A stretch of DNA of 64,000 nucleotides, taken from positions 25,048,001 through 25,112,000 of the forward strand of contig OX597818.1 in NCBI GenBank assembly GCA_951406725.2, read 5' to 3'. The translations under genes were made by a program, and so were the position numbers. How positions within the stretch are numbered: position 1 is the stretch's first letter; each line of letters begins with the position of its first letter. This document shows positions 32,379-32,905 of the stretch, piece by piece. The DNA comes from Octopus vulgaris (taxonomy: Eukaryota). The notes under the pieces were generated by a model that did not search any database, had not been told where the DNA came from, and saw only the letters and a program-made list of their open reading frames with translations.

Positions 32379-32905
32379 GTGCAAGGAGTCCTATGATGGA
32401 TGCCACTTATGTGTTTAAATGTACACTGTATTTATATGAATAAAATATTGTTTATTGACTAAATTTTTACGCGCTAGGCCACTGGTAATGGAAATTTCTA
32501 ATATTTCTGATTACCCTTTGATATTATTAATTATTGATATTTTTTCTGGATAATTTTCGAATTGAAAAGCCAGTATTTCATTTATTCCCAACAAGGAGCT
32601 GTGCTTGTGCGGTTGATTTGAAAAAATAGAATGCATAAGCACGGGCCATATACTGGGTTGCCTTGTGTATATATATTTAGTCTAAGGTGTACTTGCTGAA
32701 GAAGACTTCACCTAGCAAATTATTTTATTTGCTAAAAAAAGTCTGAAATCATTGGTCCAGGAGTTAGATGGTAAGTCTTTTTATTTTTCATTCCCTTCAA
32801 ATTTTTATCCCTAATATTGGTTTGAAATTTAACTGTCCTCTCTAAGGTGCAAGAAGTCCTATGATGGATGCCACTTATATGTTTAAATGTACACTGTATT
32901 TATAT
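32379..32905 (+). mobile_element. ~468-bp hammerhead-containing unit with a ~58-bp terminal direct repeat (pLTR/non-LTR-retrozyme-like)
   Basis: gtgcaag.agtcctatgatggatgccacttat.tgtttaaatgtacactgtatttatat begins at both 32379 and 32847. HHR inside; no ORF. Confidence 0.78.
32692..32762 (+). ncRNA. Type I hammerhead ribozyme motif
   Basis: cttg-CTGAAGA-agactt...(tagcaaat/atttgcta)...aagtct-GAAA-tcattgg-TC-cagg. Stem III is slightly decayed. Confidence 0.8.

Follow-up and report, generated by a model that had tools for sequence, protein, structure and literature searches.

The repeat unit and its surroundings

The window analysed here, a stretch of 64,000 nucleotides from Octopus vulgaris (GCA_951406725.2, contig OX597818.1, positions 25,048,001 to 25,112,000 of the forward strand), contained a slightly over-length copy of a 468-bp unit with a predicted hammerhead ribozyme, a diverged sibling of that copy, and a degraded coding Penelope-like element (PLE). 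The coordinates of these features are collected in Table 1. Bases 32379–32437 matched bases 32847–32905 at 57 of 59 positions with a spacing of 468 bp (E = 9e-23), and the repeat could be extended by placing the start of the copy at about 32374 rather than 32379, which gave an element of 532 nt with its 3′ end abutting (TA)n and without an inverted 5′ arm. When the unit was circularised, the longest ATG-initiated open reading frame on either strand was 41 amino acids, and the GC content was 32%. The preliminary description of this locus had reported a non-coding 468-bp unit with one hammerhead that runs into (TA)n, as well as a repeat of about 58 bp recurring 468 bp away; the hammerhead descriptor, the open reading frame scan, and the repeat alignment bore this out, with a repeat of 59–64 bp depending on the start chosen. 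Repeat finders run over the whole window gave output dominated by microsatellites.

Table 1. Features of the window, with strand and basis of assignment
Feature	Position	Strand	Basis
Single-armed, 5′-truncated insertion, 1.14 units of the 468-bp non-coding unit	32374..32905	+	Self-alignment and family matches
5′ overshoot, belonging to a further circuit of the unit (first repeat copy)	32374..32437	+	60/64 identical to 32842–32905; non-majority base in common
3′ end of the copy, the short 3′ end of the family (unit position 52–59)	32842..32905	+	101/229 arms in that class
Second (long) 3′ end of the family (unit ~150–162), read through by the focal copy	32528..32540	+	84/229 arms in that class
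(TA)n microsatellite abutting the copy's 3′ end	32906..32923	.	Sequence; 140/185 family arms at fixed ends lie beside a microsatellite
Type I hammerhead: core CTGAAGA 32696–32702, stem II 32703–32744, GAAA 32745–32748, predicted cut after C32757	32692..32761	+	Descriptor scan
Sibling: separate insertion, 0.83 unit long, from a sister subfamily and carrying a hammerhead of its own (core 24707, predicted cut 24644)	24479..24878	-	Alignment and descriptor
Degraded coding PLE, a comparator that is not part of the unit	25777..29450	-	GIY-YIG PF01541, E 1.8e-7

Several other elements were present in the window. A LINE remnant on the minus strand (about 30900–32373) was broken off exactly at the 5′ junction of the focal element, and other copies of this LINE continue. 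Another minus-strand remnant at 29413–29970 gave an RVT_1 match, and we take the LINE remnants to be RTE-like. After the (TA)n lay a 270-bp imperfect hairpin element (32921–33190), MITE-like, with 67-bp arms that were 94% alike and TTAA at both ends; its ends presumably resemble Kolobok-type termini, and locus L068 contained a partial relative. Mixed TA/AC microsatellite tracts of 2.5–3.6 kb, at 36060–39645 and 40775–43242, interrupted LINE-like ORF pieces.

The hammerhead descriptor, applied to both strands of the full window, gave only two matches, one in the focal copy (plus strand) and one in the sibling (minus strand), and Rfam at gathering thresholds gave no match anywhere in the window. 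The core, stem I, and stem III were set by the search pattern and are therefore not independent evidence for the motif. In 24 copies from several subfamilies, 91.9% of the cells of stem II were paired and 8 of its 20 base pairs had two-sided changes; although kinship among sequences can outscore a shuffle control without any structure, the slid controls for stem II still dropped to 23–45% paired. Maintenance of this pairing across subfamilies suggests that the ribozyme mattered. The core was intact in 28 of the 39 passes in the set of top matches. The ribozyme region folded alone was no better than shuffles (z = -0.6), and the minimum-energy fold of the focal copy lacked the full three-way junction; the circular fold of the 468-bp unit was more stable than 40 shuffles (z = -3.5). 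The focal copy differed from the family majority by two C-to-T changes, at 32693 (stem I) and 32749 (stem III), each turning a C-G pair into U-G, and both predicted stems would be weaker in it than in the majority sequence.

The ribozyme had traits of the PLE type, namely a short stem I, an unpaired base before stem II, and G10.1-C11.1, and the sister subfamilies had a palindromic stem III. Judged by the part of PMC4209133 that was available, PLE-type hammerheads share with it the short helix I, the long helix II, the unpaired base after position 9, and G10.1-C11.1, and share with the sister subfamilies the palindromic helix III; loop 3 is one base shorter in the focal subfamily, and the motif here lies in an ORF-less unit whereas theirs lies in the pseudo-LTR (pLTR) of a coding element. 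Unrelated hammerhead motifs occurred in the DNA flanking the copies at loci L017/L025, L064, L013, L074, L046, and L071, and those that recur point to further, putative ribozyme families.

The diverged sibling that had been placed at 24490–24880 proved real. Its alignment with the focal unit, running from 24878 to 24472 on the minus strand, covered 415 bp at 70.8% identity (E = 7e-37), and the sibling's subfamily had a period of mostly 475–489 bp. Sister subfamilies in general showed about 70–77% identity to the focal family, with periods of mostly 475–506 bp. We rejected the sibling as a pLTR of the neighbouring coding PLE, since 29 other copies of that PLE stop about 900 bp earlier, without the unit.

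Copy ends and two-armed insertions in the family

A search of the 2.8-Gb genome gave 122 matches from 40 scored of 2908 candidates. Because these top matches were biased toward long copies, two samples were drawn with exact motifs, one of 93 places (ribozyme) and the other of 44 places (near the 3′ end). We mapped 151 fetched loci to circular unit coordinates, which yielded 229 distinct arms once duplicates had been dropped. Rough lower estimates from the motif samples were 270 passes that include the ribozyme and 600 that cover unit positions 4–35, and the family appears to be dispersed as hundreds of scattered copies. The arms had a mean identity of 91% (best 97%) to the family majority, and no close twin of any copy was found among the matches seen; with L189 as the query, the best other matches reached at most 91%. 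The low identity to the majority and the lack of close twins indicated that the family is old. The focal copy is likewise old and probably inactive.

The 5′ ends of the 229 arms were scattered, and most arms were shorter than one unit, with a median of 221 nt in the motif samples (n = 151). Forty-two arms were longer than one unit, by 5–438 bp, and in all of these the unit was preceded by itself and not by an ORF, which indicated that the template was longer than a single unit and that no ORF lay between its units. No arm contained two full units; the longest was 906 nt, and the absence of two-unit arms is uninformative because the decay of arm length predicts just 0.2–2.2 of them. Two ribozymes one unit apart were present at a few loci (L006, L015, L017, and L020), while the focal copy has one. 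From the scattered 5′ ends, the variable overshoot, and the self-preceded unit, we concluded that the 58-bp redundancy is the point at which reverse transcription of the focal copy stopped, and not a structural terminal repeat. The preliminary description had called it a terminal redundancy, which as a structural feature these lengths do not support, and had proposed a genome-wide search for multimers and varied starts. That search did find scattered 5′ starts and over-unit copies at many loci, so the repeat is not unique to this locus.

The 3′ ends were of a different kind. Of the 229 arms, 101 ended at unit positions 52–59, 84 at about 150–162, and 44 elsewhere, so that two fixed ends about 100 nt apart together accounted for 185 arms. 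A microsatellite occurred within the next 20 nt in 140 of these 185 arms, compared with 16% of random 20-mers from the flanks. The short 3′ end is the putative first start site of reverse transcription, and the (TA)n tract at 32906–32923 the putative target site of the focal insertion.

Many loci contained two arms arranged head to head, in 38 of 74 and 29 of 43 loci of the two motif samples. Both ends could be classified in 45 of 75 two-armed loci, the other 30 having an unclassifiable end and being excluded from the count; 44 of the 45 paired one short with one long end, one paired short with short, and none paired long with long (p = 1e-12). The same one-of-each pairing was found in sister subfamilies, in 6 of 6 classifiable pairs in one set and 4 of 5 in another. 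Arms of one locus also agreed in haplotype markers (459T, 31 of 35, p = 5e-6; 130A, 14 of 14), as did successive tandem passes (459T, 19 of 21; 130A, 13 of 13). Non-majority bases were held in common within loci 79 times against 29.5 expected and, in the second count, 109 times against 39. Copies within a locus differed by 9–10% compared with 11% between loci, and the closeness of these values indicated that most of the divergence is decay after insertion. Gene conversion could add to the sharing within loci.

Source of the enzyme and form of the template

The coding PLE of the window had a cysteine motif upstream of its GIY-YIG domain, and a first look at the genome gave 2346 candidates for it. 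It had no DNA homology to the 468-bp unit, and the descriptor found no hammerhead in its 3′ region. Its copies ended at 25832 and at about 25777, some 55 nt apart, with 29 of 31 ends (29 loci) falling into these two clusters, the second of which coincides with the end of the probe, where the window copy meets TA; most copies then continued into TA-rich sequence. Coding PLEs with intact 781-aa frames were present in the genome, which means that suitable enzymes are available there. A young PLE family (L218, L223, and others) had many such frames, and its 3′ region contained repeated ATTGG and TGACGTC motifs and ended in (TA)n. An ORF fragment at 45189–45689 (plus strand) of the window resembled a second PLE endonuclease region by eye and gave no Pfam match.

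Whether the copies are instead solo pLTRs, that is, 3′ ends left by an ordinary coding PLE, was considered because the ribozyme has PLE-type traits (PMC4209133, as far as available) and all insertion marks are PLE marks. PLE protein matches, however, were few: of 211 fetched loci with the unit, some of them overlapping, 8 contained such a match, a wider protein set added L022, and 3 of 50 further loci contained one. Their distance and orientation varied with no fixed position relative to the unit, and in two PLE-bearing loci read base by base the PLE was separated from the unit by TA runs, indicating separate insertions. Nor did the 42 over-unit arms lead into an ORF, as they all continued into the unit itself. 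The preliminary description had asked whether any copy is attached to a PLE ORF and had named the 3′ end of a coding PLE with a fixed start as the ordinary alternative; in the loci seen no copy was attached to a PLE ORF, and the 5′ start was not fixed. Sixty GIY-YIG loci (few families, from 6136 first-look candidates) showed no homology to the unit apart from one 45-bp match (E = 5e-4); the closer reading of 30 of these loci was effectively without L227, and L229 was not a PLE. Relaxed ribozyme patterns and 20 sister loci examined at 8 kb gave no autonomous partner either. We therefore regard the solo-pLTR explanation as very improbable and largely refuted for the copies seen, though a rare intact parent may exist.

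Among 45 unselected arms, 37 read through the predicted cut site, which indicated that the templates were either uncut or re-joined, and 30 of 53 passes over the site were exact, most of the others having single substitutions. We consider a monomer circle, cut by the ribozyme and re-ligated, to be the most likely template, at about even odds, with an uncut tandem transcript as the alternative. In that alternative the same non-autonomous PLE derivative would be copied from uncut linear transcripts of at least one tandem master locus, with the hammerhead as an inherited passenger and no need for a circle. It is a serious possibility, though we lean somewhat against it. The crossing of the cut site and the lack of any arm of two or more units among 229 are in its favor, a homogeneous array would explain the haplotype sharing as well as a circle does, and in PMC11167929 a coding PLE works mainly on uncut RNA. 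Against it, over-unit copies occurred in several haplotypes, so that several master arrays would be needed, and a search by exact pattern for pairs of ribozymes spaced by one unit gave just three loci, all of them known copies under two units, with no long array, although masters may have been lost or left unassembled; the stem II pairing kept across subfamilies also suggests that the ribozyme was not a mere passenger. The circular fold, more stable than its shuffles, also counts in favor of a circle. The decay of arm length cannot tell a circle from a dimer.

Eight of the 45 unselected arms stopped at unit positions 383–388, just 3′ of the cut at 379/380, a weak excess (p = 0.04 for an 11-nt bin; p = 0.0015 for a 6-nt window chosen after the data were seen), and 3 of 53 crossings had deletions of 4–7 nt at or just before the cut. 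These would fit a linear monomer cut by the ribozyme, with over-unit copies made when the reverse transcriptase jumped from the template's 5′ end back to a 3′ end. The stops, however, fell 3–8 nt short of the cut and not at it, and the 37 arms that crossed it did so mostly without a scar, so that we find this explanation unlikely. Sequencing contigs from eight runs, six of them guessed to be RNA, contained pieces of the family at low depth, and assembled contigs cannot reveal ends, strand, or circles. Contigs of 463–477 nt in runs X1 (record 3), X2 (record 10), and X5 (record 25), from two studies and guessed to be RNA, had a depth of about 10, and each was one whole circuit of a related variant ending at unit position 53, with markers in common with L189, L176, L108, and L021. 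They fit either a circle or a transcribed over-unit locus. The unit-to-unit joint was also present in two unlabelled large runs and therefore says nothing about circles.

Taken together, we assign a probability of roughly 0.75 to the reading in which the focal sequence is one old copy of an ORF-free 468-bp repeat that carries a predicted hammerhead and was likely inserted by a PLE enzyme. In the route that we infer, a PLE protein would bind the unit RNA and cut both strands of TA-rich DNA, and each cut end would prime reverse transcription at an internal site, one at about 59 and the other at about 155–162, on one RNA haplotype. Each of the two cDNAs would end at a random point, and the pair would be joined head to head, in many cases with an overlap of 2 nt; survival of a single arm would give a copy of the focal type, whose synthesis would have begun at about 59 and run for 532 nt. 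The earlier idea of a non-autonomous ribozyme retroelement thus holds for the ORF-free, dispersed unit with a ribozyme motif, and a circular RNA of about 470 nt is plausible, but the idea fails for the redundancy of about 58 bp as part of its structure. A stricter version, in which a single PLE complex copies one RNA circle made by the hammerhead, working from the two ends of a staggered cut in the DNA, and each end obligately uses its own one of two start sites that lie about 100 nt apart, is one that we hold tentatively, as somewhat more doubtful than not.

Relation to known elements and implications

In its workings the family resembles the metazoan non-LTR retrozymes, and it most likely belongs to them. 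This class has been published, and its mobilisation by PLEs has already been proposed. A 2026 preprint (Li, Clavereau and Pollet, 10.64898/2026.07.22.740005) argues, in its available part, that non-LTR retrozymes derive from PLEs and are non-autonomous, and reports that one of nine predicted frog elements was cleaved. Together with the accessible text of Cervera and de la Pena 2020 (PMC7229834), it places retrozymes in a mollusc (mussel, 350–390 bp). As described in those portions of the two sources, metazoan non-LTR retrozymes share with the octopus family a non-coding unit that is short and low in GC and contains a single type I hammerhead, the lack of LTR features, and PLEs as the proposed mobilising partner; they are repeated head to tail, an organisation that the octopus family shows in part. 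In contrast, the octopus family consists of dispersed fragments under two units and not of arrays, it is old, and its ribozyme has PLE-type traits with a long two-part stem II. Cleavage and circular RNA define the class, whereas this family is known from DNA sequence. The two fixed 3′ ends and the two-armed insertions are absent from the retrozyme descriptions in the same portions of PMC7229834 and 10.64898/2026.07.22.740005.

Those two features have counterparts among PLEs. The accessible part of Craig et al. 2021 (PMC8557442) describes copies in partial tandem, copies inverted at the 5′ side, and a tail at one end, and that of Frangieh et al. 2024 (PMC11167929) describes a PLE protein that acts at AT-rich DNA, where it cuts both strands and extends them from two internal start sites, with hammerhead cleavage unnecessary for insertion in vitro and uncut RNA as the main substrate. 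Relative to PLEs and their non-autonomous derivatives in those parts, including MRC1 of Chlamydomonas, the family has in common the 5′ truncation, partial tandems, an inverted 5′ copy, a 3′ tail that spans the distance between two start sites and is optional, targets rich in TA, and a hammerhead upstream of the start sites. It differs in that the unit is ORF-less and the tail is about 100 nt compared with the usual 30–40. According to the same part of PMC8557442, the 3′ end of a non-autonomous Chlamys element is generally similar to that of its partner, whereas no similar autonomous partner was found here in the loci examined. In a literature search, whose coverage left most subscription journals outside, there was no paper stating the one-of-each rule and no paper on a cephalopod retrozyme.

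The family supplies countable genomic evidence for the route by which such elements insert, with two fixed starts, one per arm in 44 of 45 classifiable two-armed loci, and one RNA haplotype per insertion. The one-of-each pattern matches the biochemistry of PLEs in vitro and yields a prediction that could be put directly to a PLE assay in vitro. If the stricter version is true, a one-of-each rule held across subfamilies that are 25–30% diverged would expose the geometry of PLE integration, and would explain pLTRs, tails, and 5′ inversions together.
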